Positions 3,067-47,700 of a DNA stretch of 64,000 nucleotides are shown here, in pieces. A program made the position numbers and the translations under genes. Position 1 is the first letter of the stretch. Each line of letters begins with the position of its first letter. Below the pieces are notes generated by a model. The model saw only the letters and a list, made by a program, of their open reading frames with translations. It made no database searches and was not told the origin of the DNA. Origin of the DNA: Eledone cirrhosa (lineage: Eukaryota); assembly GCA_964016885.1 (NCBI GenBank), contig OZ024744.1, positions 68,758,001-68,822,000 on the forward strand, given 5' to 3'.

Positions 3067-3111
<45 letters not shown>
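3067..3111. repeat. (ATT)15 microsatellite: tail/target between copies A and B
   Basis: Direct reading. Confidence 0.97.
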
Positions 3112-3320
3112 GGCGACCTACGTAGGAAATCGTATTATCGTGAGCTCCTCAAAGGTTTGTTATTTCCGTTTGTTTAAAAATTGCCATTTATGGAAAATTT
3201 TATTGTAAACTGTTTATAAGCACACATACATTGTTTTCCGAAAAGGACACCCAAAAAGATTGGGGCCTTGTGCCCAAAATTTTAACTTTTATTATTATCC
3301 AAAAATTTCTTTGAAAAAAA

Positions 3321-5307
3321 ATGGCTAATTCCCCTCTGCACGAAGCAGCTGAAAGCCTTCCTCACAAAATAACACCTCACACCGACACCACCATTGTAAA
3401 TGTTACTACGTTTGCCAACACAAAAAAAAATATAAGCAGTAGCAATATTTTAAATTTGTCTCAGGCAGACATTCATTTCCCGCCATTACAAATGACTGCA
3501 GGTGTTAAACCCTCCACCACCACCACCACCGCGACAACCACGACCACCACCACCACCGCGACAACAGAAACAAAAGAAGAAAAAAATAAATTAACTCGTG
3601 ACGTCGAAATGAAATCAAGCAAAATGGACTCTTCCCCACCAAAGACGACTGACGTCACCACCACCACAACTGAAAATAAAATTAATATTAACGATAGCAA
3701 CAACAACAACAATGACATTATAAAACCGACCCTCAGTTTCGCCATCGTAGCAAAACAATTCGAAGCGTTCACGGTAACTCAAGAAGATTTAGAAAATGCC
3801 AAACAAATGGTAAAGAAAGATGGGTACAGGGTCAGCCTCACCCCCCCCACCTAATAAAATGGAGCATCGGCGCCTGTGCACCGTGTCATATAGAACAATA
3901 AATGTAAAATCGCGCCGAGTGGAACGGGCATCCGAGTCCCAAATCCAAAAAGCTTTGGGACATGTGTGGGCAAGAAAAACCCACATCAGACGTGGGCAAA
4001 AGTATGGAACCGTGGATGTGTTCTTTGAAACACCAGAAGAGGCTAGAGAACACTCCATGGCCCCATTAAAAAGTGACGACCTCACACTCGTCCCAAGCTA
4101 TTGTGGCCAGAGACTCGTAAAGATCAGGGTGACCCACGTTCCACCGGCCATCGAAATTCCCTGGCTAATAGCGGCTGTCCTCGCCGGCATCGAAGCCAAC
4201 ACGAAAATAATAGCAGTAGCAAAAGAAAAGCAGGAAAACTGGTCCGGATCTGGGATGGAGCTCCTGATCCAAGCGGACCAAAAAAGCATTGAGGAGATCC
4301 CAGAGGTAATAGACCTCACTGACGGCAGCCACCTCACGGTAATTGTCGAGGGCAGAAGACCTAGGTGTGTCGTTTGTGGTGAAGGAACCCACCTAAGGGC
4401 TTTCTGCCCTCAGGCTAAAAGGTTGAGGCCACCTCTCCTACCCACCCCAGTGACACAACCATCAACACCACCAGTAGCAGAGATGGCAGCAAAAACTGTA
4501 GCAGCAACAACAGAAGCAACTATAACAGCAACAACCCCAGCAACAGTAGCAAAACCAACACCACTACCACCACCAGAAAAACCAACACCACCACCACCCA
4601 ACGCTTCAGAACTAGCACCAGCGCCTACACCATCCACCACACCACAACCAAAACTAACGGCTGTGGAGGATTTTCCACTCCCCGGCCTATCACAACTGGA
4701 GACAGATTGTGACGACGAGGAGTGGGAAACGATATCCGGAAAAAATAAAAGAAACCAAAAAAGAAAAAATTCTCTTCCTTCCCCCTCCAAAAACAAAATA
4801 CAGAGGGAAACAAATAAACTAAGAAACAAAAAAGTTAGGACAGATATGCCACCATCCACACCAGCATCAACAACCCCATCAACCCAAACACCAACACCAT
4901 CACCATCATTAACTCCAACACCACCATCACCTACACCACAAAAGTCACCAAAATGCGAAACAGAAACAAACCCACAACAAACGCAAACAAAACAAAACAA
5001 CCAAAACGATACACACTACACAGCATTAAATTTGAACAACAAGCAATTATTGCACTACATCCAACACAACACCAGCATCACAGAAAAAGACTACACAACA
5101 ACCCCAACATTCACACCACCTCCACACATACAAATCACTCGCATCACACAGAAAACGTACATGACACTAAAACAAAAATTCCCCAAAGACATCGGAGACT
5201 TCCGACAAGCACTCTCCAGGAGGATTTATAAGGACATCCTTCCTGAGGAGGCCACAAGCAGTGAAAAGGATGGAAAAACCGTCCTTCCCCTACGAGAAGT
5301 AAGGTAA
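3321..5307 (+). CDS. ORF1 gag-like nucleic-acid-binding protein, split by one extra C in the C8 run at 3841-3848
   Basis: Joining ORFs 3321-3854 and 3820-5307 gives RVSLTPPPNKMEHRRLCTVSY, colinear with copy C (RAICKAAKNFFETQEHCTVTY) and copy D. CCHC knuckle and Pro/Thr-rich linker present. Confidence 0.85.
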
Positions 5308-5341
5308 GTGGTCTTTCCCATCTTTTCCACTCCTTTTCAAC

Positions 5342-8300
5342 ATGACCTCACTCAGAATAGGCAGCATAAATGCGCGTGGCTTGGGGTCGTCATGGAAGCA
5401 GGGCCACCTGCTCAACGACCTCAGGTCACTAAACATAGATGTAGTGGCCATCAGCGAGACCAGAATCTCCGAAGCACAGGCTTTCGCACCGATCTTCGGC
5501 GGCTACGATGTGTACGCATCTCCCAGCCGTCCGGGATCGGGGGGAGGAGTTGCTGTGCTTTTTCGGAGAGGTTTGGATCTTGCCATACGGGCCATCTTCT
5601 TGGACCCAGAAGGTAAGTTGGTGGTGCTGGACGTGACCAGCGGAGACGGGCAAGCTTTCAGGTTAGTGGCCGTCTATGCCCCGACAGGAGCAGGGCGGCC
5701 TGATTTCTTCCGGCGTCTGGAGACCTTTCTTGGAACGTCCCGCTCTTTAGTGTTAGTGGGCGACTGGAACGGGATCTTAGATGCACGCTGGGATTGTGTG
5801 GGATTAGTGGATAGGGAAGGAGGGTGCAAGAGTCTCACCAACCTGCTCAGACGTTTTGAACTGTCTGACAGGTACCGAATGGATTTCCCGAATGTACCAA
5901 TGTGGACTTGGACAAATCGCATAGGGTCATCCAGATCATATCTAGATAGAGTATTTTGTAGGGAAATAGATAGGTCTAGCATAGGCTGTCCACAATTCAA
6001 GATAGTCAGCTACACGGACCACAAATTCGTGACCTGTGTGCTTGACTTAGATAGGCTTCATAGACAAGGACCCGGCTACTGGAAGCTAAACGCGTCCTTA
6101 CCAGCGCGCAAGGCCTACAGAGACCGGATTAGCGAACTAGTTAAGCGGGCGTTGACGGGGGCCATCGTCAACAACAAATGGTGGTTTGCTCTGAAAAGAG
6201 CAATTAGAATAGAGTCCATTAGGTTTAGTAAGACTTTAGCAATAGAGAAAAATAGAGCAGAGGGAGAATTAGTTAGAAAATTAGATGAGGCGCTTAGCAA
6301 AGGCATCGCGACCGACGTACTTGCGGCGAAATTGGCCCTTGACCAATTCTTCAATGCAAAGCACGAAGGCTGCGTTGTCAGAGCTAGGGTGCGTTTTCTC
6401 AGACACGAGAGGACGAAAGCCGTTCAATGGGCCCGAGTGGCGGAGGCGCGTCGTGGCAACAAAGCCACGATCCGGTCTTTGGTGGACCACGACGGGCGCA
6501 TGCTACTCGATCCCGGGCAAATGTGTGAAGCTTTTCAGCGACACTTCGCTCAACTGTTCGGGGGCAGTGGCGGGCCAGATCGAGGGATAGACTTTAGTGT
6601 CTACCTCGACGGACTGCCGCGGCTTTCGGCCACTGAAGCGGAGTGTTGCGAAAAGCCGATAACAACCGCTGAAGTACGGGATGCAATGACTAGTTGCACA
6701 AGGGGTAAATCGCCTGGTTTGGATGGTCTGCCCTATGAACTTTACGTACAAATGCCAAACTTGTTCGGAGGCCTCTTGGCGGACGTCTACTGCAACTGGC
6801 AACAGAACGGGAGAATTCCCAGCTCTGTGAGCCGAGGAGCGGTGGCGCTGCTGAGAAAGGATCCGAACAAGGGGGATAACATAGATAATTTTAGGCCCAT
6901 AACTCTGCTAAACACAGAGTTCAAGATTTTGGCCAAGGTGCTAGCAAAGAGGTTGGCGCTTGTCGTTGGTGGTCTGGTGGGAGAGGCACAGACATGCACC
7001 ATTCCCGACAGATCCATCCACGACAACCTCCACCTCATGCGATACATCGTAGAGAGGGTAGCTAGGGAACCTGGCACGGGTGGGTCTTTGATCAATTTAG
7101 ATCAGTCGAAAGCCTTCGATAGGGTCGACCATCGTTACCTAACGGCAGTCCTGAGGGCGGCTGGCTTTGGGCCCGTCTTCAGAGGCTGGATCGCTGCCAT
7201 GCACAGCGACATCTGCTCTGTAGTGAGAGTGAACGGTCACCTTTCGGAACCGTTCAACATCATGCGCTCGGTCCGCCAAGGATGTCCCCTCTCGTCCCTA
7301 TTGTACGTATTGACTCTCGAGCCATTACTGCACAAACTGGAGACGTTGAGGGGGGTCCCGCGCGAACTAGGATGCGGAAGATCCGTGTCAGCATATACCG
7401 ACGATGTCACCGTAGTGGTGTCGAACGCCAAACACATCGAGGCGATCTGTACTACACTAAGAGATTACGAAGCGGTGACTGGAGCAATGATCAACCAGGA
7501 AAAGTCAGTGGGCCTGCAGCTCGGCACCTGGAGAGGCAGGTCCATGCCGTCCAACAGCGTCGTCGGGCGCTGGACGGACGGACCGGTTAAATTGCTAGGG
7601 GTCTGGTTCGGTCCAGACCTCCAGACGGACAAAAACTGGGACGAGGTGACGAGCAGGGTGGCTTCTCTCACCCAGAAATGGGCCGAGAGGAAGCTATCCC
7701 TGAAAGGTCGAGCGGAGGTGGCGAATGCGTACATCGCATCCGTCATCTACTACCGCCTGACCGTCGTACCTTGTCCTAAGCCCCGCCTGACTGCGCTGGA
7801 GCGTTTGCTCTTTCGCTTCTTGTGGAAGGGACGCGCTCCGATGGTCAGGCGGTCCATCTGCTGTCAACACCCGCTACGTGGAGGGCTGGGCATGCCGTGG
7901 CTGATGATGCGCAGACATGCGCTCAGGCTACGACATCTCCACCTCTTCCTCGACGGTGATCAGGTGTGGTCGCCGTTTGCAAGACACGATTTTCCCCAGC
8001 TCTTCTCCTTGACGGAGCTGCAGTCCTGGGTCAAGCGAAGACCGAGAGGGAGCGCCTGGAGACTGGAATGTCTTCAGGCGCTCACAGCCCTCGACCAATC
8101 GGGCAATGTGATCGGTGGAAACTCCGCCTTGGCGTTCTATAGGGGATTAGTGGAGGGGAAGAGCGACGACGTACTTGGAGAAACTCTAGGCGTCGACGAA
8201 AATCAACTAGCCAATCTCTTCGGAAGGACTTTCGGGCCGGGGCCTATGGACAACTTCCAGAAATCCCTGGCCTGGCAGTGCTACCGAGGAGCTTTGCCAG

Positions 8301-8761
8301 TTCGGGATAAACTCTACAGGCATGGAGGTGCCGTCAGCCGGGCATGTCCGAGATGCGCGCAGGGCGACGAAACCGTCCTGTACGTACTCGTCCAGTGTCC
8401 GAGCATTGCTGACTTGTGGGTTTATGTCGAACACCTGCTGTCACGTGTAGGACGGATCCAGCTATCAGCTGAGTCCATCGTGAGGATTGCCCCGCCCCCT
8501 TCCTTTAGCCTGGAAGGGCAGGCAGTTTTTATCTGTCTGGTGGCCATGGCGAAAGAGATAGTATCGTGGACACGTTTGAAAGGGCTGAAGACGAGCCCTT
8601 ACCTCTTCGGTGATGCCCTGATTAACTTTTTCAAATTTCATTTGAAAAGGAAAATCAGGGTAGAGAGGGAAGTGCTCTCTTCCCAGCATTTTGTTGAAAG
8701 ATGGGTGAGAGAAGCAAGTATGGCCCGAATGAATGGGCCTTCTCTGAGTATGTGTCTGTAA
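5342..8761 (+). CDS. ORF2 polyprotein: APE endonuclease, reverse transcriptase, C-terminal zinc-finger region (1139 aa)
   Basis: APE motifs including YTDHKF. RT motifs RQGCPLS, AYTDDV, KLLGVWF. C-terminal CPRC...C with the His position read as Tyr. Confidence 0.96.
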   Translation: MTSLRIGSINARGLGSSWKQGHLLNDLRSLNIDVVAISETRISEAQAFAPIFGGYDVYASPSRPGSGGGVAVLFRRGLDLAIRAIFLDPEGKLVVLDVTSGDGQAFRLVAVYAPTGAGRPDFFRRLETFLGTSRSLVLVGDWNGILDARWDCVGLVDREGGCKSLTNLLRRFELSDRYRMDFPNVPMWTWTNRIGSSRSYLDRVFCREIDRSSIGCPQFKIVSYTDHKFVTCVLDLDRLHRQGPGYWKLNASLPARKAYRDRISELVKRALTGAIVNNKWWFALKRAIRIESIRFSKTLAIEKNRAEGELVRKLDEALSKGIATDVLAAKLALDQFFNAKHEGCVVRARVRFLRHERTKAVQWARVAEARRGNKATIRSLVDHDGRMLLDPGQMCEAFQRHFAQLFGGSGGPDRGIDFSVYLDGLPRLSATEAECCEKPITTAEVRDAMTSCTRGKSPGLDGLPYELYVQMPNLFGGLLADVYCNWQQNGRIPSSVSRGAVALLRKDPNKGDNIDNFRPITLLNTEFKILAKVLAKRLALVVGGLVGEAQTCTIPDRSIHDNLHLMRYIVERVAREPGTGGSLINLDQSKAFDRVDHRYLTAVLRAAGFGPVFRGWIAAMHSDICSVVRVNGHLSEPFNIMRSVRQGCPLSSLLYVLTLEPLLHKLETLRGVPRELGCGRSVSAYTDDVTVVVSNAKHIEAICTTLRDYEAVTGAMINQEKSVGLQLGTWRGRSMPSNSVVGRWTDGPVKLLGVWFGPDLQTDKNWDEVTSRVASLTQKWAERKLSLKGRAEVANAYIASVIYYRLTVVPCPKPRLTALERLLFRFLWKGRAPMVRRSICCQHPLRGGLGMPWLMMRRHALRLRHLHLFLDGDQVWSPFARHDFPQLFSLTELQSWVKRRPRGSAWRLECLQALTALDQSGNVIGGNSALAFYRGLVEGKSDDVLGETLGVDENQLANLFGRTFGPGPMDNFQKSLAWQCYRGALPVRDKLYRHGGAVSRACPRCAQGDETVLYVLVQCPSIADLWVYVEHLLSRVGRIQLSAESIVRIAPPPSFSLEGQAVFICLVAMAKEIVSWTRLKGLKTSPYLFGDALINFFKFHLKRKIRVEREVLSSQHFVERWVREASMARMNGPSLSMCL

Positions 8762-9003
8762 ATTAAAGGTGGAAAACTGGGAGAGGGCACTTGCCCTGGT
8801 GGTCAGGGCCACTGTGTTCTTTTAATGGGCTTTCTCCACAAATGTCCCTTGGAAGTCTCCCCCCTATTGGGGAATTTTTCTTTGTTATTTTATTTCAACC
8901 TCTGTTTTTTTACACGCAGAAATGCCCATTTGTACCGTCCTGTATTGTCCTGTACTGTCCTTAATGTCTACTTTATGTGAACCCTTGTGGTCAATAAAGA
9001 AAA

Positions 9004-9004
<1 letters not shown>

Positions 9005-9034
<30 letters not shown>
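9005..9034. repeat. (ATT)10 microsatellite between copies B and C
   Basis: Direct reading. Confidence 0.97.
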
Positions 9035-9249: not shown

Positions 9250-11347
9250 ATGGCTACGAAAAAGAAATTTCATACGTCACTCCCACTCATTCCGTCTTCT
9301 TCTTCCTCAATCATCACTACAGCAGAGAGAAGATTGTCTCTCTCCCTCCCTTCTTTAAATGTGTCTCTCTCCCTCCCTTCTCTTTCGCAAGTGACGAAAG
9401 AAAAGAAAAGTCTCGTGCAAAGCGTGCAAGGTTTCTCCACGACGACGACGACAGCGACGAAACAGGTGTGCGGGAAATACGAAAACCCAGTTCATTCGTC
9501 TGACGTCAGGAATAATAGCAGTAGCAGCCGTAATAACAACAGCAACAGTGACAATGAAAACAACAGTAGCAGCCGCAACAGCATCACCAGCAGCATAAAC
9601 AACAACAGCATTAGCAGCAGCAACACCAACAACAACCACAGCAACAGCGGCGGAGGCAGTAGTCGTAGTACCTGCAGCAACAACAAAAGTACCAGCAGCT
9701 CTGACGACAACAACAACAGCAGAGAAAAACCAATCTCATTTGCAGGTATTGCGAAAAACTTGGAAACAATCCTCATAACAAATGAGGAATTAGAGGAAGC
9801 GAAGAAGATGGTGACAAAGAACGGACACCGAGCAATCTGCAAGGCAGCGAAAAATTTTTTCGAAACCCAAGAGCACTGTACGGTCACGTACCGTACAGTA
9901 AGTACAAAATCCCGTAGGGTGGAAAGAGCCACAGAGGCCCAAATACAAAAAGCCTTGGGGTCTGTGTGGCAGAGGAAAACGCACATCACCCGAGGCAAAA
10001 AATACGCCACCGTAGACGTACTTTTTGCCACACCCCAGGAGGCAAAGGCCCAATCAGTAGTGACCCTAAGGAGCGAGGAAATGGTGTTGGTGCCCTCCTA
10101 CTGCGGGCAAAAAATTGTGAGGGTCAAACTGACCCACGTCCCCCCCCGGAATGACCCCTTCTTGGCTGGCCGCGTCTGTCCTCGTCGGAATCGAGGACAA
10201 AACAACTGTACTGCAAGTACAGAAAAAAGTAAGAGAAGATTGGGTCGGCTCCTCCATTGAGATGCTAATCCAAACCAACCAGGAGTGCATCGAAGCTATC
10301 CCGGATGTGATAGACTTCGATAACGGCACTCAACTGCCCATAAGTGTTGAGGGCAAACGCCCGAAATGCTTTCGCTGTGGATCGAAGACTCACCTCAGGG
10401 CCTTCTGCAACGAGAAGACCCTGAGAAAGGAGAAAACCCCCCTCCTTCCGAATCCGGCTCCACGGCTACCAGCAACAGGACAAGCGGCAACCAGGAACGA
10501 TAGGTCCGTGGCACCCATACCCACTCCACGGAAATCAAAGACAGCAGCAGCAGTGGAAATATTAACAACAACAACAGCAATACCAAATGCAGCTGCAACA
10601 GAGACTCCAGTGCAAACATCACCAACAACAACAAGTGAAAGAGTGGAGCTGGTACCCCTCCCCGACCTTACAGAATCAGACATGGAGTGTGAGGTGGGAG
10701 AGGGATGGCAAAAGGTCGCAAGAAGGCACAAACGCAGAAGCAGCGCATCGTCGCCTTTGAAAAGGGAGGAAAGAAATGAGAAAAGGGTAAAGTCTACTGC
10801 AAAGAGACCCACAGCAGCAACACCACCAACACCATCACCACCCACACCAGCACCACCATCACCACCGGCGACAACCCCACCGCCAACAACACCTTCAACA
10901 CCACCACCACAAGCACCAACATCGCAAACACAACAACAAAACACACACACCCAGCAACAACGACAAGAAAATAGTAGAACCACACCCCACCCCCAGAAAA
11001 ACAAATGCACGGCAATAAATACACACAACAAGAAACTAATGACTTACATAATTGAACACACAGACATTTCACAACAGGACTACATAATACCAGCACCAAT
11101 CAAAACGCCAACTAACATAAGACTGCTAAAAATAGCACAGAAACAATACACAAACATTAAAACGAAATTCCCCAACGCAGTTGGTGATTTCAGGGACCTA
11201 GGAGGAACCATCAATCGAAGAGTATACTCAGACATTCTCTTAGAAGAGCCGACGACCAGCCGAAGGGACGATTCAACGGTCCCTTCACCAGACGATCAAG
11301 TGAAAAGGGATGTAAAAACCATCCCTCCTCTACCAAAAGTACGGTAA
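9250..11347 (+). CDS. ORF1 gag-like protein of copy C, split by one extra C in the C8 run at 10140-10147
   Basis: ORFs 9250-10260 and 10151-11347 join as THVPPGMTPSWL, versus copy B THVPPAIEIPWL. CCHC knuckle CFRCGSKTHLRAFC. Confidence 0.85.
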
Positions 11348-11382
11348 GTGGTCTTTCCCATCTTTTCCACTCTATTTTAAAC

Positions 11383-14300
11383 ATGACCTCACTCAGAATA
11401 GGCAGCATAAATGCGCGTGGCTTGGGGTCGTCATGGAAGCAGGGTCACCTGCTCAACGACCTCAGGTCACTAAACATAGATGTAGTGGCCATCAGCGAGA
11501 CCAGAATCTCCGAAGCACGGGCCTTCGCACCGATCTTCGGCGGCTACGATGTGTACGCATCTCCCAGCCGTCCTGGATCGGGTGGAGGAGTTGCTGTGCT
11601 TTTTCGGAGAGGTTTGGATCTCGCCATACGGGCCATCTTCCTGGACCCAGAGGGTAAGCTGGTGGTGCTGGACGTGACCAGCGGAGACGGGCAAGCTTTC
11701 AGGCTAGTGGCCGTCTATGCCCCGACAGGAGCAGGGCGGCCTGATTTCTTCCGGCGTCTGGAGACCTTTCTTGGAACGTCCCGCTCTTTAGTGTTAGTGG
11801 GCGACTGGAACGGGATCTTAGATGCACGCTGGGACTGTGTGGGATTAGCGGATAGGGGTGGAGGGTGCAAGAGCCTCACCAACCTGCTCAGGCGTTTTGA
11901 ACTGTCTGACAGGTACCGATTGGATTTCCCGAATGTGCCAATGTGGACTTGGACAAACCGCATAGGGTCATCCAGATCATATCTAGATAGAGTATTTTGT
12001 AGGGAAATAGATAGGTATAGCATAGGCTGTCCACAATTCAAGATAGTCAGTTACACGGAACACAAATTCGTGACCTGTGTGCTTGACTTAGATAGGCTTC
12101 ATAGACGAGGACCCGGCTACTGGAAGCTAAACGCGTCCTTACCAGCGCGCAAGGCCTACAGAGACCGGATTAGCGAACTAGTTAAGCGGGCGTTGACGGG
12201 GGCCATCGTCAACAACAAGTGGTGGTTTGCTCTGAAAAGAGCGATTAGAATAGAATCGATTAGGTTTAGTAAGGCTTTAGCAATAGAGAAAAATAGAGCA
12301 GAGGGAGAACTAGTTAAAAAATTAGACGAGGCGCTTAGCAAAGGCATTGCGACCGACGTGCTTGCGGCGAAATTGGCCCTTGACCAATTCTTCAATGCAA
12401 AGCACGAAGGCTGCGTTGTCAGAGCTAGGGTGCGTGCTCTCAGACACGAGGGGACGAAAGCCGTTCAATGGGCCCGAGTGGCGGAGGCGCGTCGTGGCAA
12501 CGAAGCCACGATCCGGTCTTTGGTGGACCACGACGGGCGCATGCTACTCGATCCCGGGCAAATGTGTGAAGCTTTTCAGCGACACTTCGCTCAGCTGTTC
12601 GGGGGCAGCGGTGGGCCGGGTAGAGGGATGGACTTTAGTGTCTACCTCGACGGACTGCCGCGGCTCTCGGCCACTGAGGCGAAGTGTTGCGAAAAGCCGA
12701 TAACAGCCGCTGAAGTAAGGGAGGCAATGACTGGCTGCACAAGGGGTAAATCGCCTGGTTTGGATGGTCTGCCCTATGAACTTTACGTACAGATGCCAGA
12801 CTTGTTCGGAGGCCTCTTGGCGGACGTCTACTGCAACTGGCAACAGAACGGGAGAATTCCCAGTTCTGTGAGCCGAGGAGCGGTGGCACTGCTGAGAAAG
12901 GATCCGAACAAGGGGGATAACATAGAAAATTTCCGGCCCATAACTCTGCTAAACACAGAGTTTAAGATTTTGGCCAAGGTGCTAGCAAAGAGGTTGGCGC
13001 TTGTCGTTGGTGGTCTGGTGGGAGAGGCGCAGACATGCGCCATTCCCGACAGATCCATCCACGACAACCTCCACCTCATGCGATACATCGTAGAGAGGGT
13101 AGCTAGGGAACCTGGCACGGGTGGGTCCTTGATCAATTTAGATCAGTCGAAAGCTTTCGATAGGGTCGACCATCGTTACCTAGCGGCAGTCCTGAGGGCG
13201 GCTGGCTTTGGGCCCGTCTTCAGAGGCTGGATCGCTGCCATGCACAGCGACATCTGCTCTGTGGTGAGAGTGAACGGTCACCTGTCGGAACCGTTCAACA
13301 TCATGCGCTCGGTCCGCCAAGGATGTCCCCTCTCGTCCCTCTTGTACGTATTGACTCTCGAGCCATTACTGCACGAACTGGAGACGTTGAGGGGAGTCCC
13401 GCGCGAACTAGGATGCGGAAGATCCGTGTCAGCATATGCGGACGATGTCACCGTAGTGGTGTCGAACGCCAAACACATCGAGGCGATCGGCACTACACTA
13501 AGAGAATACGAAGCGGTGACAGGAGCAATGATCAACCAGGAAAAGTCAGTGGGCCTGCAGCTCGGCACCTGGAGAGGCAGGTCCATGCCGTCCAACAGCG
13601 TCGTCGGGCGCTGGACGGACGGACCGGTTAAATTGCTAGGGGTCTGGTTCGGTCCGGACCTCCAGACGGACAAAAACTGGGACGAGGTGACGAGCAGGGT
13701 GGCTTCTCTCACCCAGAAATGGGCGGAGAGGAAGCTATCCCTGAAAGGTCGAGCGGAGGTGGCTAACGCGTACATCGCGTCTGTCATCTGCTACCGCCTA
13801 ACCGTCGTACCTTGTCCTAAGCCTCGCCTGACTGCGCTGGAGCGTTTGCTCTTTCGCTTTTTGTGGAAGGGACGTGCTCCGATGGTCAGGCGGTCCATCT
13901 GTTGTCAACACCCGCTACGTGGAGGGCTGGGCATGCCGTGGCTGATGATGCGCAGGCACGCGCTCAGGCTACGACATCTCCACCTCTTCCTCGACGGTGA
14001 TCAGGTGTGGTCGCCGTTTGCTAGACGCGTTTTTCCCCAGCTCGTTTCCTTGACGGAGCTGCAGTCCTGGGTCAAGCGAAGACCGAGAGGGAGCGCCTGG
14101 AGACTGGAATGTCTTCAGGCGCTCACAGCCCTCGACCAATCGGGCAATGTGATCGGTGGAAACTCCACCTCGGCGTTCTATAGAGGATTAGTGGAGGGGA
14201 AGAGCGACGACGTACTTGGGGAAACTCTAGGCGTCGACGAAAATCAACTAGCCAATCTCTTCGGAAGAACTTTCGGGCCAGGGCCTATGGACAACTTCCA

Positions 14301-14802: not shown

Positions 14803-15064
14803 ACTAAAGGTGGAAAACTGGGAGAGGGCACTTGCCTTGGTGGTCAGGGTCATTGTGGCTTTTTACTGGGCTTTCTCCACAAATGTCCCTCCGAAGTCTC
14901 CCCCCTATTGGGGAATTTTTCATTGTTATTTTCATTGTTATTTTTGTTACATCCTCTGTTTTTGTTTTTTTACACGCAGAAATGCCCATTTGTACCGTCC
15001 TGCATTGTCCTGCACTGTCCTTAATGTCTACTTTATGTAAACCCTTGTGGTTAATAAAGAAATC

Positions 15065-15198: not shown

Positions 15199-18100
15199 CC
15201 TTGAATCTCAATCATTGATGTTGGTTAACTGGAAAGTCCGTTGGATTGAATATCAAGCCACTACCTGCAGCCTCAGATATTCAGGACGTATCGGAGGGTT
15301 CTTGCTGTTCCAAGCAAGCATGCCTTTTGAAGCGTTCCAAAAAGCGTGAAGGGGCCGATTTTCTTTAACCATCCCTGGAAACTTTTGGAGATAGTCCCCA
15401 GTGCGCCTATGACAATCGGGATCACTTTGACTTCATGGCAGTTCCAAATCCTTTTCACCTCCTACTTTAGGTCCTGGTATCGCTTAATTTTCTCCCTCTC
15501 CTTCTCTTGCACTCTCGTGTCGAACGGGCAGGCCACATCCACAATCAGGCACGATCTTTTTTCTTTGTCCACAACCACCAGGTCAGGTCTATTGTGTTCC
15601 AGTTTTTTGTCCGTCTGTATCCTAAAATCCCACAGCACCTTCACCTGATTGTTCTCCATCACCGCCTCTGGCCTATGCTCATACCATTTCTCAGAATGTG
15701 GTAGATTGTTTACTTTGCACAGGTGCCAGTGGATCACCCTGCCCTTCACATCATGTCTCCAGCCCTTATAGTGGGTCTGGGCTAGGTGTTTACACTCGGA
15801 CACAATGTGAGCCACAGTCTCCTCTCTCTCTCCACAGATCCTGCACAGTGGGCTAGCCTCCTCCTTGTAGATATGGTGCTTCAACCACTTCGTTTTGAGG
15901 GCCTGCTCCTGCGCAGCCATTAGCATTCCTTCTGTAGCCTTTTTGAGGTCTCCTCTTCTCAACCAGTTCCATGTCTGTGGATCTCTAAATTCAGTTTTCT
16001 CAAAGAAGGTACTATGAAGGGATTTTCCCTTAAGGCTGCTCTTCCTCCTTGATGTTATTTCCTCCCTGGACATCCCCTGGCCTACTGTCCCCTCCTTCAG
16101 TACAGTTCTGAGCATTGGCTCCTTACTATAGGTCACGTATTTGTATAGGTTGTTTTTCTCCATCTGAACACAGTCCTCTATGCTGATAAGACCTCTTCCA
16201 CCCTCAGATCTCCTTAGGTAGAGTCTATCGACATCACTCCTCTTGTGGAACATGTTGTAGATAGTCAATAGCTTCCTAGTCTTCCTATCCATTTCTTTTT
16301 GTTCAGCAACATTCCATCTCAGAATTCCCGCACTGTACCTAATAATAGACACAGCTCGGGAATTTACTGCGCTTATGGCATTTCTGCTGTTCAGATGTGA
16401 CTTCAATACGCTCCTTACTCTCCGAATGTATTCAGTTCTTAACAATTCCTTCATTTTTTGGTTCTTTATGCCATCAGCCTCCAGAACGCCCAAATACTTG
16501 TATCCTTCCTCAGAGTCAATTTCCTTTATCATCTCACCTGTTGGTATCTGGATCCCGTTACTTCTGCTCAACCTACCCCCCTTCATCACAATGACTCCAC
16601 ATTTACCAATACCAAACTGCATACATATATCACTGCTGAAAATACGGACAGTGTCAACAAGCACATCCAACTCCTTCTCACTTTTCCCGAAGAGCTTAAG
16701 ATCGTCCATGAAGAGGAGGTGATTGATGGTAAGCTCTCCCCTTCCCAACTTGTATCCTGCTCTCACTTTTCGCAGCATAATGGTCAAGGGCATCAGGGCA
16801 AGGACAAACAACAGAGGGGACAGGCTATCTCCCTGGAAGATACCTCTCTTGATCTTCACGCTTCCCAAGGATACTCCAGTTGATGTCAACTCTGTCTCCC
16901 AGGACCCCATACTCCTGCCCAGCAACTGTCTGATGTTATCTGCCACCCTGAAGATCTCCAGGCTTTTGGTGATCCAGAAATGAGGCACCATGTCAAATGC
17001 CTTTCTGTAGTCTATCCATCCCATGGCAAGATCAGTGTGTCTCCTCCTGCAATTCCCCATTACCATCTTATCAATAAGCAACTGGTCCTTTGTACCACGT
17101 GACTTCTTTCGGCATCCTTTCTGTTCGTCCGGTAACAAGTTGTTTGTGTGGAGGTGATGGCAGATTTCCTCAGACACAATGCTCGTCAACAGTTTCCACA
17201 TTACGGGCAGACATGTGATAGGTCTATAGTTGGTAGCATCATTACCCTTGATTCGGTCTTTCATTATCAGAACTGTGGTACCTTTTGTCAACCACTCTGG
17301 CACCTCACCCGACACCAAGCAGTCATTGAACATGGCCGTCAGCTTCGGGTGGAGGGATGTTAAATGTTTAATCCAATACCCCTGCACACCATCTGGGCCT
17401 GGTGATTTCCAGTTGGTTAGTTTTTTGGCTTGCCCCTTAAGAGTTTCAACTGTGATACTCAAATCAGTCTGTTGCTGTGCCTGCTCACCGATCTCCCTCT
17501 GTACTGTCTCAATCCACCCTGCCTGGGCATTGTGTCTAACATCCCGCTCCCATATTCCTCTCCAGAATGTTTTAGTTTGTTCCGCCCCAGGGATCAAGTC
17601 GTTGCCTCCTTCTTTGGCCTCAAGCTGTCCAAACAGCATCTTCTGGTTGTTGTCGAACATGCGGTTCTGTTTATACTGACTGACTCTGTTCTCGTATCGC
17701 CTGATTTTGGCACTCTTTGCTACAATGCGTTGCTTCAATTCCTCTATGATAATATTTAGCTTTTTACTCCTAGTTTTGTATTTTATTTCCAGTCTATTTT
17801 TAGTGCCTATGTTTTTTAGTGTCCCATTCAGTAGTGACTCAAGCTTTCCTATGTCATTTCTCATTTCCCCGATTTGCCCACTCAGTCGCTTCTTCCACCA
17901 CGGCTCTGCTCTTTCTTGTCTGTTGTTTCCTCTCGCTTTTATACCAAGTAGTTTCCTCACCGTATTTGCTGTTGCTCTGAGGATATTGTTGCACTGGTGA
18001 AGGCTCCTCGCCTCAAGGTATGGGATGACTTTGTTTACCTTAGCTGTTGTTTCTTTTAACTTTTTCCTGTCTACAAATCTTAGGTTCATAGGTCTCCCAC

Positions 18101-18642
18101 TATCATTGTTCAATTCATCTACCACTAAATTTAGGATGTCAACCGAATCTTGTCCTAGCCCGTCAGCATTCATCTCCTCAGTGGCCGTATCTCTGTTCCA
18201 GGTATTATTTATCTCAGTACTCAGATCATTGTCTGCTTCGGGTGGTTCCTCCGTTCTCAGGACCTCCTCACCTTCATTTCCCACCGGCTCGCTTGTCTGG
18301 CATACTACACCCGCCATCTCCAAGCCATTCTCTCTGCTCAGTTCCTCCAGTTCCAGCTCGCTTATCCACCCATTAGTTCTTATTACCCGAGCCTGCCCGG
18401 CCAATTTTTGTTCATCTAATTTAAATAAACCAATCTCGTTCCAGATGTTATGCATCCGTCTCCTGTAGCCCCTCTCCTTGGGGTTACTTTTCAGGTAGCA
18501 TTGCATAACAGTTCTATTCAATTCTTTCGTCCAGTTGGTTCTGGCCCCTTTCCTTCTTCTCCTTCCTCCAACATCAGCAGTATTTGGTTGACAGTCAGGT
18601 TCCTGCTGCTGAGCCAGTCTGTCACATGAGTCTGTCACATGA

Positions 18643-18643
<1 letters not shown>
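15199..18643 (-). mobile_element. R4/Dong-clade non-LTR retrotransposon (RT + restriction-like endonuclease), probably 5'-truncated
   Basis: Single ORF with RT (QGDSLSPLLF, LLFMDDLKL), CCHC (CRICGEREETVAHIVSEC), RHD and PD..D-type RLE (RPDLVVVD...IVDVACPFD...EKIKRY). (TAA)n at both ends, the known Dong target. Confidence 0.92.
15273..18638 (-). pseudogene. R4/Dong ORF with one in-frame stop (TAG at 15462-15464)
   Basis: Reads YQDLK*EVKRIWNC in one frame. The related fragment at ~24550 has TGG (WELKRIW) at this codon. Confidence 0.88.
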
Positions 18644-18688
<45 letters not shown>

Positions 18689-35554: not shown

Positions 35555-36347
35555 GTATGTTAGGAGTAGTAACCACAACATCACAATTACTGTATGGTAG
35601 GAGTGGTAACAACAACATCACAACTACTGTATGGTATGGTAGGAGTGGTAACAACAACATCACAACTACTGTATGGTAGGAGTGGTAACAACAACATCAC
35701 AACTACTGTATGTTAGGAGTGGTAACAACAACATCACAACTACTGTATGTTAGGAGTGGTAACAACAACATCACAACTACTGTATGGTAGGAGTGGTAAC
35801 AACAACATCACAACTACTGTATGTTAGGAGTGGTAACAACAACATCACAACTACTGTATGGTAGGAGTGGTAACAACAACATCACAATTACTGTATGGTA
35901 GGAGTGGTAACAACAACATCACAACTACTGTATGGTAGGAGTTGTAACAACATCACAATTACTGTATGGTAGGAGTGGTAACAACAACATCACAACTACT
36001 GTATGGTAGGAGTGGTAACAACATCACAACTACTGTATGTTAGGAGTGGTAACCACAACATCACAACTATTGTATGGTAGGAGTGGTAACAACAACATCG
36101 CAACTATTGTATGGTAGGAGTAGTAACAACAACATCACAACTACTGTATGGTAGGAGTGGTAACAACGACATCACAACTATTGTATGGTAGGAGTGGTAA
36201 CAACAACATCACAACTACTGTATGGTAGGAGTGGTAACAACATCACAACTACTGTATGGTAGGAGTGGTAACAACAACATCACAACTACTGTATGTTAGG
36301 AGTGGTAACAACAACATCATAGTTACTGTTTGCTGGAAGTGGTAACA
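35555..36347 (+). repeat. 37-bp minisatellite, about 21 units (TGTATGGTAGGAGTGGTAACAACAACATCACAACTAC; 34-bp variants)
   Basis: Period 37 measured between 35671 and 35708. Confidence 0.95.
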
Positions 36348-38787: not shown

Positions 38788-41700
38788 ATAACAACACATG
38801 ACCTTCACGTTAGTATTCCCAAGGTGCATTGCTATAACAACAAATGACCCTGATGCTAATATTTCTAACGTACATTGCTATAACAACACATGAACCTCAC
38901 GCTAATATTCCCACCGTACATTACTATAACAACACATGACCCAGACGCTAGTATTCTCATGGTACATTGCTATAACAACATATGATCCTGACGCTAATAT
39001 TCCCAGCGTACATTACTATAACAACACATGACCCAGACGCTAGTATTCCAAACGTACATTGCTATAACAACACATGACCCAGACGCTAGTATTCCCAACG
39101 TACATTGCTATAACAACACATGAACCTCACGCTAGTATTCCCAAGGTACATTGCTATAACAACACATGACCGTCACACTAGTATTTCCAACGTACATTGC
39201 TATAACATCACATGACCCTCACGCTAGTATTCCCAGGGGTACATTGCTATAACAACACATGACGCTGACGCTAATATTCCCAAGGTACATTGCTATAAAA
39301 ACAAATGAGCCTGACGGTAATATTCCCAATGTACATTGCTATAACGACACATGACCCTGACGCTAATATTCCCAAGGTTCATTGCTATAACAACACATGA
39401 CGCTGACACTAATATTGCCACGGTACTTTGCTATAACAACACATGACCCTACGCTGGTATTCCCAACGCACATTGCTATAAGAACACATGACCCTCACGC
39501 TAATATTCTCAACGTACATTGCTATAACAACACATAACGCTGAGGCTAATATTCCCAACGTACATTGCTATAACAACACATGACACTCACGCTGGTATTC
39601 CCAACGTACATTGCTATAACAATACATGACCCTCCCGCTAGTATTCCCAACGTACATTCCTATAACAACACATGACCCTCACGCTAGTATATCCAAGCTA
39701 CATTGTTATAACAACACCGGACCATCACGCTAGTATTCCCAATGTACATTGCTATAACAACACATGACCCTCACGCTGGTATTCCCATCGTACATTGCTA
39801 TAACAATACATGACCCTAACAATAACATTCCCAACGTACATTCCAATAACAACACAGGACCCTCACGCTAGTATTCCCAGGAGTACATTGCTATAACAAC
39901 ACATGGCCCTAATGCTGATATTTCGAACATACATTGCTATAAAAACACATGACCCTGATGCTAATATTCCCAAGGATCATTGCTATAACAACACATAACC
40001 CAGACACTAATATTCCCAAGGTAAATTGCTATGATAACACATGACCCTCACGCTGGTATTCCCAACGTACATTCCTATAACAACACATGACCCTCATGAT
40101 AATATTCCCCACGTACATTACTATAACAGCACATGACCCTCACGCTAATATTCCCAATGAACATACGTATAACAACACATGACCCTGACGCCAATATTCC
40201 CAAGGTCCATTGCTATAACAACACATGACCCTCATGCTAGTATTCCCAACGTATATTCCTATAACAACACATGACGCTGACGCTAATATTCCCAACGTAC
40301 ATTGCTATAACAACACATGACCCTCACGCTAGAATTCCCAATGTACATTGCTATAACAAAACATAACCCTGACGCTAATATTGTCAAGGTACATTGCTAT
40401 AAAAACACATGACCCTCATGATAATATTTCTAACGTACATAGCTATAACAACACATAACTTTCACGCTAGTATTTCCAAGGTTCATTGCTATAACAAAAC
40501 ATGACGCTGACGCTAATATTCCCAACGTGCATTGCTATAACAAAACATGACGCTGACGCTAATAGTCCCAACGTGCATTGCTATAACAACACATGACCCT
40601 CAGGCTAATATTCCCAACGTACATTGCTATAAACACACATGACGTTGACGCTAATATTCCCAACGTACATTGCTATAACAATACATGACGCTGCTAGCGC
40701 TAATATTCGCGAGGTATATTGCTATAGCAACAAATGACCCTCACGCTAGTATTCCCAACGTATATTCCTATAACAACACATGACGCTGACGCTAATATTC
40801 CCAACGTACATTGTTATAACAACACATGACCCTCACGCTAGTATTTCCAAGCTACATTGTTATAACAACACATGACCCTCACGCTAGAATTCCCAATTTA
40901 CATTGCTATAACAAAACATAATCCTCACGCTAATATTGTCAAGGTACATTGCTATAACAATACATGACCCTCACACTAATATTCCCAACGTACATTCCAA
41001 TAACAACACATGACGCTCACGCAAGTGTTCCCAGGGGTACATTGCTATAACAACACATGGCCCTGACGCTGATATTTCCAACATACATTGCTATAAAAAC
41101 ACATGACCCTGACGTTAATATTCCCAAGGATCATTGCTATAACAACACATAACTCTGACACTAATATTCCGAAGGTACATTGCTATAATAACACATGACC
41201 CTCACGCTAACATTCCCAACGTACATTGCTATAACAACACATGACCCTCATGCTAATATTTCTAACGTACATAGCTATAACAACACATAACTTTCACGCT
41301 AGTATTTCCAAGGTACATTGCTATAACAAAACATGACGCTGACGCTAATATTCCCAACGTGCATTGCTATAACAACACATGACGCTGACGCTAATAGTCC
41401 CAACGTGCATTGCTATAACAACACATGACCCTCAGGCTAATATTCCCAACGTACATTGCTATAAACACACATGACCCTCAGGCTAATATTCCCAACGTAC
41501 ATTGCTATAACAACACATGACCCTGACGCTAGTATTCACAACGTTCATTGCTATAACAACACATGACGCTGACGCTAATATTCCCAAGGTAAAATACTAA
41601 AACAACATATGACGCTTACCCTGATATTCCCAAGATACATTGCTATAAAATCACATGACCCTCACGCTAGTATTCCCAAGCTACATTGCTATAACTACAC

Positions 41701-44700
41701 ATGACCCTCACCCCAGTATTCCCAACGTTCATTGCTATAACAACACATGACGCTGACGCTAACATTCCCAATGTACATTGATATAACAACACATGACCCT
41801 CACGCTATTAATTCCCAACGTACATTCCTATAACAACACTTGACGCTGACGCTAGTATTCACAACGTTCATTGCCATAACAACACATGACGCTGACGCTA
41901 ATATTCCCAAGGTACAATACTAAAACAACATATGACCATGACACTGATATTCCCAGGGTTCATTGCTATAACAACACATGACCCTCACACTAACATTCGC
42001 AACGTATATTGCGATAACAACACATGACCCTCATACTAATATTCCCAACGTACATTACTATAAAAACACATGACCCTCATACTAATATTCCCAACGTACA
42101 TTGCTATGACAACACATGACCCTAACGCTAATATTCCCAACGTATATCGCGATGACGACACATGACACTGACGCGAATATTCCCAACCTACATTGCTATA
42201 ACAACACATGACCCTACTGCTAATAATTTCCAACGTACATTCCTATAACAACATATGACCCTGACGCTAGTATTCTCAAAGTACAATGCCATAACCACAC
42301 ATGATGCTGACGCTAATATTCCCAAGGTACAATACTAAAAAAATATAATACCCTGACGCTAATATTCCCAAGGTACATTGCTATAACAACACATGACCCT
42401 CACGCTAGTATTCCCAAGCTACATAGCTATAACAACACATGACCCTCACACTAATATTTCCAACGTATATTGCGATAACATCAGATGACCGTCATGATAA
42501 TATTTCCAATGTTCATTGCTATGACAAAACATGACTCTCACGCTAATATTCCCAACGTACATTCCTATAACCACCCATGACACTTACACTAATATTCCCA
42601 AGGTTCATTGCTATAAAAACACATGACCCTGACACTAATATTCGCAAGGTACATTGCTATAACTACACATGACACTCACACTAGTATTCCCAAGGTACAT
42701 TGCTATAACAACACATGACCCCAAAGCTAGTATTCCCAACGTACATTGATAAAACAACATATGACCCTGACGTTAATCTTCCCAACGTACATGGCTATAA
42801 CAACACCTGACCCTCACCCTAGTATTCCCAACGTTCATTGCTATAACAACACATGACCCTCACGCTAGAATTCCCAATGTACATTGCTATAACAAAACAT
42901 AATCCTCACGCTAATATTGTCAAGGTACATTGCTATAACAACACATGACCCTCACGCTGGTATTCCCATCGTGCATTGCTATGACAACACATGACCCCAT
43001 CGCTAACATTCCCAACGTACATTGCTATAACAGCACATGACCCTCACACTAATATTCCCAACGTACATTCCAATAACAACACATGACCGTCACGCTAGTA
43101 TTACCAGGGGTACATTGCTATAACAACACATGGCCCTGACGCTGATATTTCCAACATACATTGCTATAAAAACTCGTGACCCTGACGCTAATATTCCCAA
43201 GGTACATTGCTATAATAACACATGACCCTCAAGCTGATATTCCCAACGTACATTGCTATAACAACACATAACTCTGACACTAATATTCCCGACGTAGATT
43301 GCTATAACAACACATGACCCTCACACTAATATTCCCAACGTACATTGCTATAACAACACATGACCCTCACGATAGTATTACCAGGGGTACATTGCTATAA
43401 TAACACATGGCCCTGACGGAGATGTTTCCAAAGTATATTGCCATAAAAACCCATGACCCTACGCTAATATTGCCAAGGATCATTGCTATAACAACAAATA
43501 ACCCTGACACTAATATTCCCAAGGTACATTGCTTTAATAACACATGACCCTCAAGCAGATATTCCCAACGTACATTGCTATAACAACACATGAACCTGAC
43601 GTTAACATTCCCGACGTACATTGCTATAATAACACATGACCCTCACACTAATATTACCAACGTACATTGCTATAACAACACATGACCCTCATGCTAGTAT
43701 TCCCAACGTACATTGCCATAACAACACATGATGCTGACGGTAATATTGTCAAGTTACATTGCTATGAAAAAAAATGACCCTCACACTAATATTCCCAACG
43801 TACATTCCAGTAACAATTTATGACCCTCACGATAGTATTACCAGCGGTACATTGCTATAATAACACATGGCCCTGGCGGTGATATTTCCAAAGTACATTG
43901 CTATAAAAACGCATGAACCTACGCTTATATTCCCAAGGATCATTGCTATAACAACACATAACCCTGACACTAATATTCCCAAGGTACACTACTATAATAA
44001 CACATGACCCTCAGGCTCGCATTCCCAACGTATATTGCTATAACAACACATGACCCTCATGCTAATATCCCTAACGTACATTGTTATAACAACACATGAC
44101 TTTCACGCTAGTATTCCCAACGTACATTGCTATAACAACACATGACCCTACTGCTAATAATTCCCAACGTACATACTATAACAACACATGACACTGACAC
44201 TAGTATTCCCAACGTACGTTGCCATAACAACACATGATGCTGACGTTAATATTCCCAAGGTAAAATACTAAAAAATCATATGACCCCTGACACTAATATT
44301 CCCAAGGTACATTGCTATAACAACACCTAACCCTCACGCTAGTATTCCGAAGATACATTGCTATAATAACACATGACCCTCACACTAATGTTCCCAACGT
44401 ACATTGCTATAACAACACATGACCCTAACGCTAATATTCCCAAGATACATTGCTATAATAACACATGACCCTCACGCTAGTATTCCCAACGTACATTGCT
44501 ATATCAACAGATGACGCTGACGCTAGTATTCCCAACGTGCATTGCTATAAAAACACATGACACTGACACTAATATTCCCAACGTATATTGCGATAACAAC
44601 ACATGACACTGACGCCAATATTCCCAACGTACATTGCTATAACAACACATGACCCTACTGCTAATAATTCCCAACGTACATTCCTATAACAACACATGAC

Positions 44701-47700
44701 CCTGACGCTAGTATTCCCAACGTACATTGCCATAACAACACATGATGCTGACGCTAATATTCCCAAGGTACAATACTAAAAAAACATGACCCTGACACTA
44801 ATATTCCCGGAGGTACATTGCTATAACAACACATGACCCTCAAGCTAGTATTCCCAAGCTACATAGCTATAACAACACCTGACCCTAACGCTAATATTCC
44901 CAAGATACATTGGTATAACAACACATGACCCTCACACTAATATTTCCAACGTATATTGCGATAACATCAGATGACCGTCATGATAATATTTCCAATGTTC
45001 ATTGCTATGACAAAACATGACCCTCACGCTAATATTCCCAACGTACATTCCTATAACAACACATGACCCTCACGCTATTAATTCCCAACGTACATTCCTA
45101 TAACAACCCATGACCCTTACACTAATATTCCCAAGGTTCATTGCTATAAAAACACATGACCCTGACACTAATATTTCCAACGTATATTGCGATAACATCA
45201 GATGACCGTCATGATAATATTTCCAATGTTCATTGCTATGACAAAACATGACCCTCACGCTAATATTCCCAACGTACATTCCTATAACAACACATGACCC
45301 TCACGCTATTAATTCCCAACGTACATTCCTATAACAACCCATGACCCTTACACTAATATTCCCAAGGTTCATTGCTATAAAAACACATGACCCTGACACT
45401 AATATTCGCAAGATACATTGCTATAACTACACATGACACTCACACTAGTATTCCCAAGGTACATTGCTATAACAACACATGACCCCAAAGCTAGTGTTCC
45501 CAACGTACATTGATAAAACAACATATGACCCTGACGTTAATCTTCCCAACATACATGGCTATAACAACACCTGACCCTCACCCTAGTATTCCCAACGTTC
45601 ATTGCTATAAAAACACATGACCCTCACGCTAGTATTTCCAAGCTACATTGTTATAACAACACCGGACCATCACGCTAGAATTCCCAAGGTACGTTGCTAT
45701 AACAAAACATAATCCTCACGCTAATATTGTCAAGGTACATTGCTATAATAACACATGACCCTCACGCTGGTATTCCCATCGTGCATTGCTATAACAACAC
45801 ATGACCCCAACGCTAACATTCCCAACGTAGATTGCTATAACAACACATGACCCTCACACTAATATTCCCAACGTACATTCCAATAACAACACAGGACCCT
45901 CACGCTAGTATTCCCAGGGGTACATTGCTATAACAACACATAGCCCTGACGCTGATATTTCCAACATACATGGCTATAAAAACTCGTGACCCTGACGCTA
46001 ATATTCCCAAGGTACATTGCTATAATAACACATGACCCTCAAGCTGATATTCCCAACGTACATTGCTATAACAACACATAACTCTGACACTAATATTCCC
46101 GACGTTGATTGCTATAACAACACATGACCCTCACGATAGTATTACCAGGGGTACATTGCTATAATAACACATGGCCCTGACGGTGATGTTTCCAAAGTAT
46201 ATTGCTATAAAAACCCATGACCCTACGCAAATATTGCCAAGGATCATTGCCATAACAACACATGATGCTGACGCTAATATTCCCAAGGTACAATACTAAA
46301 AAAACATATGACCCTGACACTAATATTCCCAAGGTACATTGCTATAACAACACATCACCCTCACGCTAGTATTCCCAAGCTACATAGCTATAACAACACA
46401 TGACCCTAACGCTAATATTCCCAAGATACATTGGTATAACAACACATGACCCTCACACTAATATTCCCAAGGTATATTGCGATAACATCAGATGACCCTC
46501 ATGCTAATATTTCCAATGTTCATTGCTATACCAAAACATGACCCTCACGCTAATATTCCCAACGTACATTCCTATAACAACCCATGACCCTTACACTAAT
46601 ATTCCCAAGGTAAAATACTAAAACAACATATGACCCTGACCCTAATATTCCCAAGATACATTGCTATAAAAACACATGACCCTCACGCTAGAATTCCCAA
46701 GCTACATTGCTATAACAACACATGACCCTCGCCCCAGTATTCCCAACTTTCATTACTGTAACAACACATGACCCTGACGCTAATATTCGCGAGGTATATT
46801 GCTATAACAACGCATAACTCTCACGCTAGTATTTCCAAGCTACATTGTTATAACAACACCGGATCATTACGCTAGAATTCCCAATGTACATTGCTATAAC
46901 AAAACATAATCCTCACGCAAATATTGTCAAGGTACATTGCTATAATAATACATGACCCTCACGCTGGTATTCCCATCGTACATTGCTATAACAACACATG
47001 ACCCTAACGCTAACATTCCCAACGTACATTGCTATAACAACACATGACCCTCACACTCATATTCCGAACGTACATTCGAATAACAACACATGACCGTCAC
47101 GCTAGTATTCCCAGGGGTATATTGCTATAACAACACATGGCCCTGACACTGATATTTCCAACATACATTGCTATAAAAACACATGATCCTGACGCTAATA
47201 TTTCCAAGGTGCATTGCTATAATAACACATGACCCTCAAGCTGATATTCCCAACGTACATTGCTATAACAACACCTGAACCTGACGTTAACATTCCCGAC
47301 GTACATTGCTATAACAACACATGGCGCTGACGCTAATATTCCCAAGGTACAATACTAAAACAACATATGACCATGACACTGATATTCCCAAGGTTCATTG
47401 CTATAACAACACATGACCCTCATGCTATTAATTTCCAACGTACATTCCTATAACAACACTTGACCCTGACGCTAGTGTTCCCAACGAACATTGCCATAAC
47501 AACACATGGCGCTGACGCTAATATTCCCAAGGTACAATACTAAAACAACATATGACCATGACACTGATATTCCCAAGGTTCATTGCTATAACAACAAATG
47601 ACCCTCATGCTATTAATTTCCAACGTACATTCCTATAACAACACTTGACCCTGACGCTAGTGTTCCCAACGAACATTGCCATAACAACACATGGCGCTGA

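Follow-up and report, generated by a model that had tools for sequence, protein, structure and literature searches.

A conserved 5' splice-site consensus and a predicted long-range RNA helix at the ORF1–ORF2 junction of a LINE in Eledone cirrhosa

In this work, we examine the short spacer between ORF1 and ORF2, the two open reading frames of a long interspersed nuclear element (LINE) in a 64,000-nucleotide (nt) stretch of the Eledone cirrhosa genome (the window; assembly GCA_964016885.1, contig OZ024744.1, positions 68,758,001 to 68,822,000), with all coordinates given as window positions on the forward (+) strand unless marked otherwise. The spacer carries a 5' splice-site consensus (donor) that is conserved across distant lineages whatever the reading frame, and it is predicted to pair with the start of the 3' untranslated region (3'UTR) on the far side of ORF2. 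A preliminary description had read the spacer as a mini-intron whose removal would fuse ORF1 to ORF2; we find a real and unusual feature that appears to be a variant of LINE RNA control and not the proposed fusion intron. Our best reading, held with about even confidence, is that U1 likely binds the conserved donor while the RNA is still nascent and that the predicted 3'UTR helix would mask the site afterwards, while the transposing RNA stays unspliced and ORF2 is likely made from its own ATG, not as part of a fusion. The donor and the helix are firmer than the purpose we assign to them.

The window starts with three copies of the LINE, A, B and C, arranged head-to-tail with (ATT)n between neighbours. 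Copy B is full length (3112–9004, bounded by (ATT)n tracts at 3067–3111 and 9005–9034), with ORF1 at 3321–5307 (stop TAA at 5305–5307) and ORF2 at 5342–8761 (1139 aa). At their junction, an AG|GTAAGT consensus (5302–5309) lies over the ORF1 stop, and the 52-nt interval that it opens (5304–5355) begins with GTAAGT after AAG and ends with CTCAG in ORF2 codon 5. Donor and acceptor are both in phase 2, the ORF1 stop and the ORF2 ATG (5342) both fall within the interval, and the sole other AG is inside the donor itself. The coordinates and phases reported earlier for B are exact, and the same arrangement recurs in A (1147–1198, 52 nt) and in C (CG|GTAAGT, 11344–11396, 53 nt to the AG). These copies are nevertheless not independent, and we rejected them as independent support, because B and C are 93–99% identical from the spacer through ORF2, even though their ORF1s are, as had been noted, very different (about 45–70% nucleotide identity). 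The pyrimidine tract after the donor is likewise free of AG; what is not supported is its role as an intron tract, since in our structure models it is one arm of the helix.

Searches of the 3.0-Gb genome beyond B and C brought in the families that we name D, E, F and G, giving 187 distinct records (4 unclassified and 3 without a scorable donor). The first 230 ORF2 residues of these four families are 53–94% identical to one another and to B/C, and the ORF2 start spans 53–98% amino-acid identity over the six lineages. Exact GTAAGT is found in 77 of 81 B copies, 27 of 27 C, 26 of 30 D, 16 of 18 E and 18 of 21 G, and family F has GTAATT by majority (exact GTAAGT in none of three). Copies chosen solely by their ORF2 start (n = 30) gave GTAAGT in 28, GTGAGT in one and a deleted donor in one. 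In all six lineages the donor lies 35–55 nt upstream of the ORF2 ATG, and alignment finds the (T/C)CAAC-type context of this start (5337–5344 in B) kept in six of six. All 8 donor columns are the same throughout B, E, D and G, compared with invariance in 2 of 28 upstream and 4 of 24 downstream (6 of 52 in the flanks together) and 21 of 64 four-fold sites; the four donor columns that are free of coding in phase-2 lineages, counted alone, give a chance of about 0.01. A second AG|GTAAGT within ORF2 (5611–5618, Gly-Lys-Leu codons), used as a control, is lost in G and in about half of C. Two single decayed copies with degenerate donors (L207, L212) were left unclassified. By alignment, donor conservation over distant lineages exceeds chance, and we consider the site probably functional.

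Of the features of a spliceosomal intron, the families compared have a conserved 5' splice-site consensus; they do not have a conserved acceptor with a pyrimidine tract and branch point next to it. The acceptor AG varies (CAG, TAG, AAG or GAG) and moves from -9 to +16 relative to the ATG, and the last 14 nt of the interval are ORF2 codons. The reading frame varies as well. Fusion had been tied to the conservation of both GTAAGT and its phase in distant copies; the hexamer is kept well beyond the family and the phase is not, being 2 in B (59/59), C (21/21), F (2/2) and G (10/11), 1 in E (11/11) and 0 in D2 (11/11), with D1 assigned to phase 1 by homology in L109 and L225 and automatic calls mixed on four decayed D1 copies. 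With the first AG at least 40 nt past the donor taken as acceptor, splicing would keep the frame in B/C, G1 and D1b and break it in E, F, D1a, D2 and G2; the frame is thus kept in three of eight configurations, the share expected by chance, and the phase match among A, B and C does not go beyond chance in these comparisons. The donor is thus conserved independently of frame, as judged from the alignments. Frame alone does not exclude fusion, because a second AG 5 nt further on would suit phase-1 donors.

Intronless progeny would be expected from a working fusion, because a LINE copies the RNA that encoded its own ORF2 protein (cis-preference; PMC5860796, in its accessible text). The genome holds 4,963 matches to the intact ORF2 start and none to the spliced B junction; allowing one mismatch in the B/C junction returned a single match, L061, a point variant that is unspliced. 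None of the seven matches to an acceptor-side pattern for B, C and E is joined to the donor; they comprise four deletions of 11 nt following the ATG, a deletion within ORF1, a truncation and a point variant. The donor-side pattern for B gave 123 matches, and among the 100 listed there were two long deletions, L123 and L159, neither GT-AG. We also discarded L166, a deletion on the acceptor side that is not a GT-AG join. Progeny in families B and C are unspliced, and removal of 5304–5355 was never found in either by these pattern searches. Among 15 of the 69 contig joints from six runs of unknown kind there was none at 5303>5356, and a narrow comparison gave 5254>5290 alone; these joints are not counted as evidence, as contigs cannot show absence. 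L161, L162, L163 and L165, from two families, have a common 11-nt deletion that runs from just past the ORF2 ATG to the codon-5 AG and shifts the frame.

Junction searches in the sister families gave four matches (two in the control), of which L169 is precise and L168 and L170 proved to be unrelated DNA, while only the matched letters were used to judge L171. L169 belongs to D1 and has an intact 5' end; what it lacks is precisely the homologous 52 nt from the GT to the codon-5 AG, and no further precise copy like it was found even when two mismatches were allowed. With a background of 59 deletions in 302,271 aligned bases, random deletion would be expected to produce 0.03–0.08 precise GT-AG joins over all families (under assumed copy numbers). 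The proposed search for intronless copies has therefore yielded one in D1 and none in B, C or E, and the one found would encode ORF1 plus one codon followed by a stop, without the ORF2 AUG, and no fusion. L169 ends in (ATT)n at about position 2180 of its own locus, ~640 nt into ORF2, without a 3' tail, as if internally primed or later deleted.

These results largely refute the view that splicing makes an ORF1–ORF2 fusion protein as the working form of ORF2, which we now consider barely credible. In its favour, B/C, G1 and D1b would be joined in frame, the second AG would suit phase-1 families, and a fusion would keep the first endonuclease strand because residue 5 aligns to L1 ORF2 residue 9. 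Against 4,963 intact ORF2 starts the pattern searches gave no intronless B or C copy, where spliced copies of human L1 number 131 of 6,609 in the accessible text of PMC5860796; the frame fits in just three of eight configurations, L169 used an out-of-frame AG, the ORF2 AUG and its context are conserved, and no longer ORF1 homologue was found, which is weak evidence. The fusion would survive solely if its protein copied unspliced RNA in trans.

L169 is instead the product expected if a mini-intron of ~50 nt were spliced at a regulated and substantial rate, deleting the ORF2 AUG and raising the ORF1:ORF2 ratio. The distance from the donor to the first usable AG is 47–54 nt in most copies of the six lineages, even though the donor-to-ATG distance ranges over 35–55 nt, which speaks for such an intron. 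Weak acceptors (AAG in D, GAG in G2), a tract far from the AG and the finding of just one retrocopy make this account very improbable to us; in F, moreover, the AG precedes the ATG, so splicing would leave the ORF2 AUG in place. Our literature search did not find a minimum intron size for octopus.

A second splice-like join lies in family C, whose ORF1 is nearer to E (59–82%) than to B (35–60%) up to the exact E exon end. From there, B-type sequence starts directly 3' of a CAG in the B ORF1 end (5259–5261), with 43 nt duplicated, in 26 of 27 C copies. In copy C, the end of ORF1 (11291–11343) aligns as an E-like exon end, joined after 11300 to the 43-nt B-type piece, and is likely an old splice join; the family C junction is likely what element-to-element splicing in a tandem array would leave. 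Both DNA joins, in L169 and in family C, suggest that the donor has been used.

The second half of the feature is the predicted helix. In duplex predictions and a global fold of B, the donor and pyrimidine tract (5303–5330) form the 5' arm and the start of the 3'UTR (8769–8795) forms the 3' arm, in which CACTTGCC pairs over the donor, with ORF2 as the loop. In copy C, the corresponding arms are 11343–11370 and 14810–14836 by duplex prediction, and copy A is without a 3' arm because its ORF2 breaks off near 2989 and continues straight into the final ~70 nt of the tail. We compared 13 copies with a continuous ORF2 and one internally deleted F copy, excluding copies with an apparent foreign 3' end. 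In all 14, the cognate spacer/3'UTR duplex has 24–35 pairs at -30 to -48 kcal/mol and a z score of -2.3 to -7.5 relative to 500 dinucleotide shuffles, and in 12 of 14 the cognate partner is the best of about 1,150 windows along the whole element. Pairing within a family is mostly the strongest (G, D1, D2, F). A global fold of 3.85 kb keeps the helix in B (30 pairs), C (26) and G (39). Pairs altered on both sides number 5 of 30 in B/C/E, 3 of 19 with G and 3 of 22 in D, related copies not being independent events. Complementarity above shuffles, together with compensatory change, marks this as a predicted long-range helix, which in our models is very probably real.

For B, C, E and G, the donor falls within the predicted helix; it is invariant while its partner strand changes, which points to a sequence-specific reader. 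The 25 longest pairs given by an ungapped inverted-repeat finder do not include the helix, which has G-U pairs and bulges. The end of ORF1 (KFP codons, 5170–5203) and the GGGGAATTTT motif of the 3'UTR (8851–8883) form another inverted match, which may extend the long-range pairing.

The position of the helix, which starts at the ORF1 stop and reaches almost to the ORF2 AUG, would also suit a purely translational gate on ORF2 reinitiation, with the donor look-alike as a by-product of stop context and pairing and any splicing as an accident. The conserved AUG context agrees with such a gate, as does the influence of RNA structure on ORF2 initiation in SART1 (accessible text of PMC3894237). What makes it rather improbable is the donor itself: it does not vary in E and D, where it does not serve as the stop, nor in D, where its +3..+6 bases are largely unpaired, even as the remainder of the helix changes freely.

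The non-conserved frame would be accounted for if the donor mainly served to remove the whole of ORF2, by splicing either to the AG within the ORF2 stop or to an acceptor in the 3'UTR, giving an ORF1-only messenger RNA like the copia gag message, with the helix as bridge or switch. ORF2 ends with TAG in 12 of 14 copies, among them every D, E, F and G copy, a join there reaches a stop within 1–2 codons in six of six E and D copies despite their differing phases, and under cis-preference such ORF2-less RNA would seldom transpose. The most numerous families, B and C, nevertheless have a TAA stop, and no early stop follows the join in B, C, F and G (19 to >34 codons). For the 3'UTR route, tail comparison finds a U-rich stretch ending in CAG (8890–8919) that resembles a 3' splice site in B, C and one F tail; it is absent from D and E tails, and we rejected the CAG at 8919 as a general splice partner on that ground. 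A TGA/TAA difference downstream of it was dropped, as it rests on one copy. No ORF2-skipping join was seen among the 100 listed of 123 atypical B donors or in the examined loci (small numbers; no genome-wide search covered ORF2-less copies in D, E, F and G), and the sole intronless copy, L169, used the near AG. On this balance, we regard removal of all of ORF2 as unlikely.

Under the reading that we prefer, U1 binding followed by masking, the donor would be free while ORF2 is transcribed and would recruit U1, protecting the RNA against early 3'-end formation as in the copia element EVD, whose conserved donor both splices and blocks early termination (PMC5580714, in the text available). Splicing at the donor would occur occasionally, and the spliced RNA could not transpose in cis because its ORF2 AUG would be removed. 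The finished 3'UTR would then pair over the donor and spacer, which would mark the RNA as complete and conceal a motif that otherwise causes nuclear retention (PMC4380460). In the cytoplasm, where the helix would span the ORF1 stop to near the ORF2 AUG, ribosomes ending ORF1 would open it, because it starts at that stop and ends near that AUG, and would reinitiate at a low rate. A bolder version, possible in our view but rather doubtful, is a completeness switch: the donor would be live only until ORF2 is transcribed, the 3'UTR would then zip on with ORF2 looped out, the race between the two would set spliced ORF1-only versus full-length RNA and gate ORF2 translation, and donor splicing between nested elements would have founded families such as C.

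Several points weigh against U1 capture followed by masking. Its steps (U1 capture, masking and the reinitiation gate) are drawn from other systems. A global fold of a D1 copy does not form the helix, and the D donor is mostly outside the long helix, its 5' half lying in a local hairpin. Pyrimidine-rich and purine-rich stretches pair easily, and cross-family duplexes still reach -19 to -54 kcal/mol, with E2 3' arms pairing with B as well as B's own. Coding alone keeps the ORF2-internal GGTAAGT in B, D, E and F, while G has lost it. As to donor use, the ends of the L169 deletion share 3 nt of microhomology, 1 of the 59 background deletions is GT-AG-compatible by chance, and the family C join has a 2-nt match that makes a template switch an alternative; both splice-like joins could be deletions or template switches. 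Finally, a free 5' splice site hinders RNA export in human cells (accessible text of PMC4380460).

The element itself is likely an L1/Tx1-type LINE in (ATT)n, a clade label based on anatomy. Domain profiles place an AP endonuclease, a reverse transcriptase and a zf-RVT zinc finger in ORF2 (PF03372, PF00078 and PF13966, all over cut-off), with the N-terminal endonuclease and C-terminal zinc finger typical of the L1/Tx1 group, and the best PDB matches are to L1 endonuclease. A CX2CX4HX4C knuckle is read in ORF1 of both B and C, and a domain search gave no matches to the RRM family. Copies A, B and C all end at (ATT)n, as do the 3' tails of the other families, in keeping with the preference for a repeat target that is a Tx1-clade trait; in B, an AATAAA (8993–8998) precedes the tail. 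The nearest named proteins are from Argonauta hians (72%) and Octopus sinensis. One further search returned only B, C and E copies, and a metagenome scan found no relatives. ORF1 has a frame change at a C-run in both B (3840–3850) and C (10141–10147), decay and assembly error not being distinguished.

Among other observations on these families, two D copies on one contig (L105, L113) are both 5'-truncated at the same ATG ~35 nt upstream of the donor, directly after (ATT)n, and several copies, including L240, L245, L248 and L252, have a 5' part from one family and a 3' end from another, a sign of nesting or chimera formation in arrays. Head to head with copy C lies a single-ORF reverse transcriptase element (15200–18644, - strand) that adjoins (ATT)n and has a C-terminal zinc knuckle and a restriction-like endonuclease motif, which we take to be Dong/R4-like. 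The window also holds ~19 kb of a 46-bp satellite (38788–58059 and 59925–61523, with short inverted blocks at 55729–56059 and 56766–57096), flanked in both orientations by a 37-bp array (35555–36347 and 58448–59498).

How one LINE RNA gives much ORF1 and little ORF2 protein while keeping cis-preference is described as an open question in the accessible part of PMC3894237. The predicted helix, which covers a conserved U1 site and brings the ORF2 stop up to the ORF1 stop and the start of ORF2, is a concrete and testable structure for ORF1/ORF2 output, and the joins described here suggest that splicing, besides template switching, reshuffles ORF1 among LINE families. Our literature searches on LINE ORF1–ORF2 splicing, U1 sites and long-range pairing, which covered few subscription papers or Repbase reports, found no conserved donor or spacer–3'UTR helix described for LINEs.

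In its anatomy, the element resembles the microsatellite-targeting Tx1-clade LINEs Kibi, in (TC)n, and Koshi, in (TTC)n (PMC4494074), and the L1-Tx1 families active in Octopus vulgaris (PMC13282606), as far as the available text of both sources describes them: all have two ORFs, an AP endonuclease–reverse transcriptase–zinc finger ORF2 and insertion into a microsatellite, here (ATT)n. In its donor, it resembles the Arabidopsis Ty1/copia element EVD and its shGAG RNA, where a conserved U1 site at the border of structural and catalytic parts has splicing and splicing-independent roles; EVD differs in being a long terminal repeat element, with splicing shown and coupled to early termination (both from the accessible text of PMC5580714). 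Here, unlike in EVD, a predicted helix of 3.4-kb range covers the donor, and splicing is suggested by DNA joins. Human L1 SpIREs offer a precedent for spliced LINE RNA that leaves precise intronless copies as a dead end, with donors in the 5'UTR and about 2% of full-length copies affected (PMC5860796, in the text available). The donor here is instead at the end of ORF1, and one intronless copy was found. ORF2 of human L1 is made by termination-reinitiation. SART1 likewise uses termination-reinitiation on an unspliced bicistronic RNA, with its own ORF2 AUG and structure near the junction (accessible text of PMC3894237), as we propose for the present element. Unlike that of SART1, the structure predicted here is long-range and encloses ORF2. 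The long-distance helix that couples translation in phage MS2 offers an analogy.

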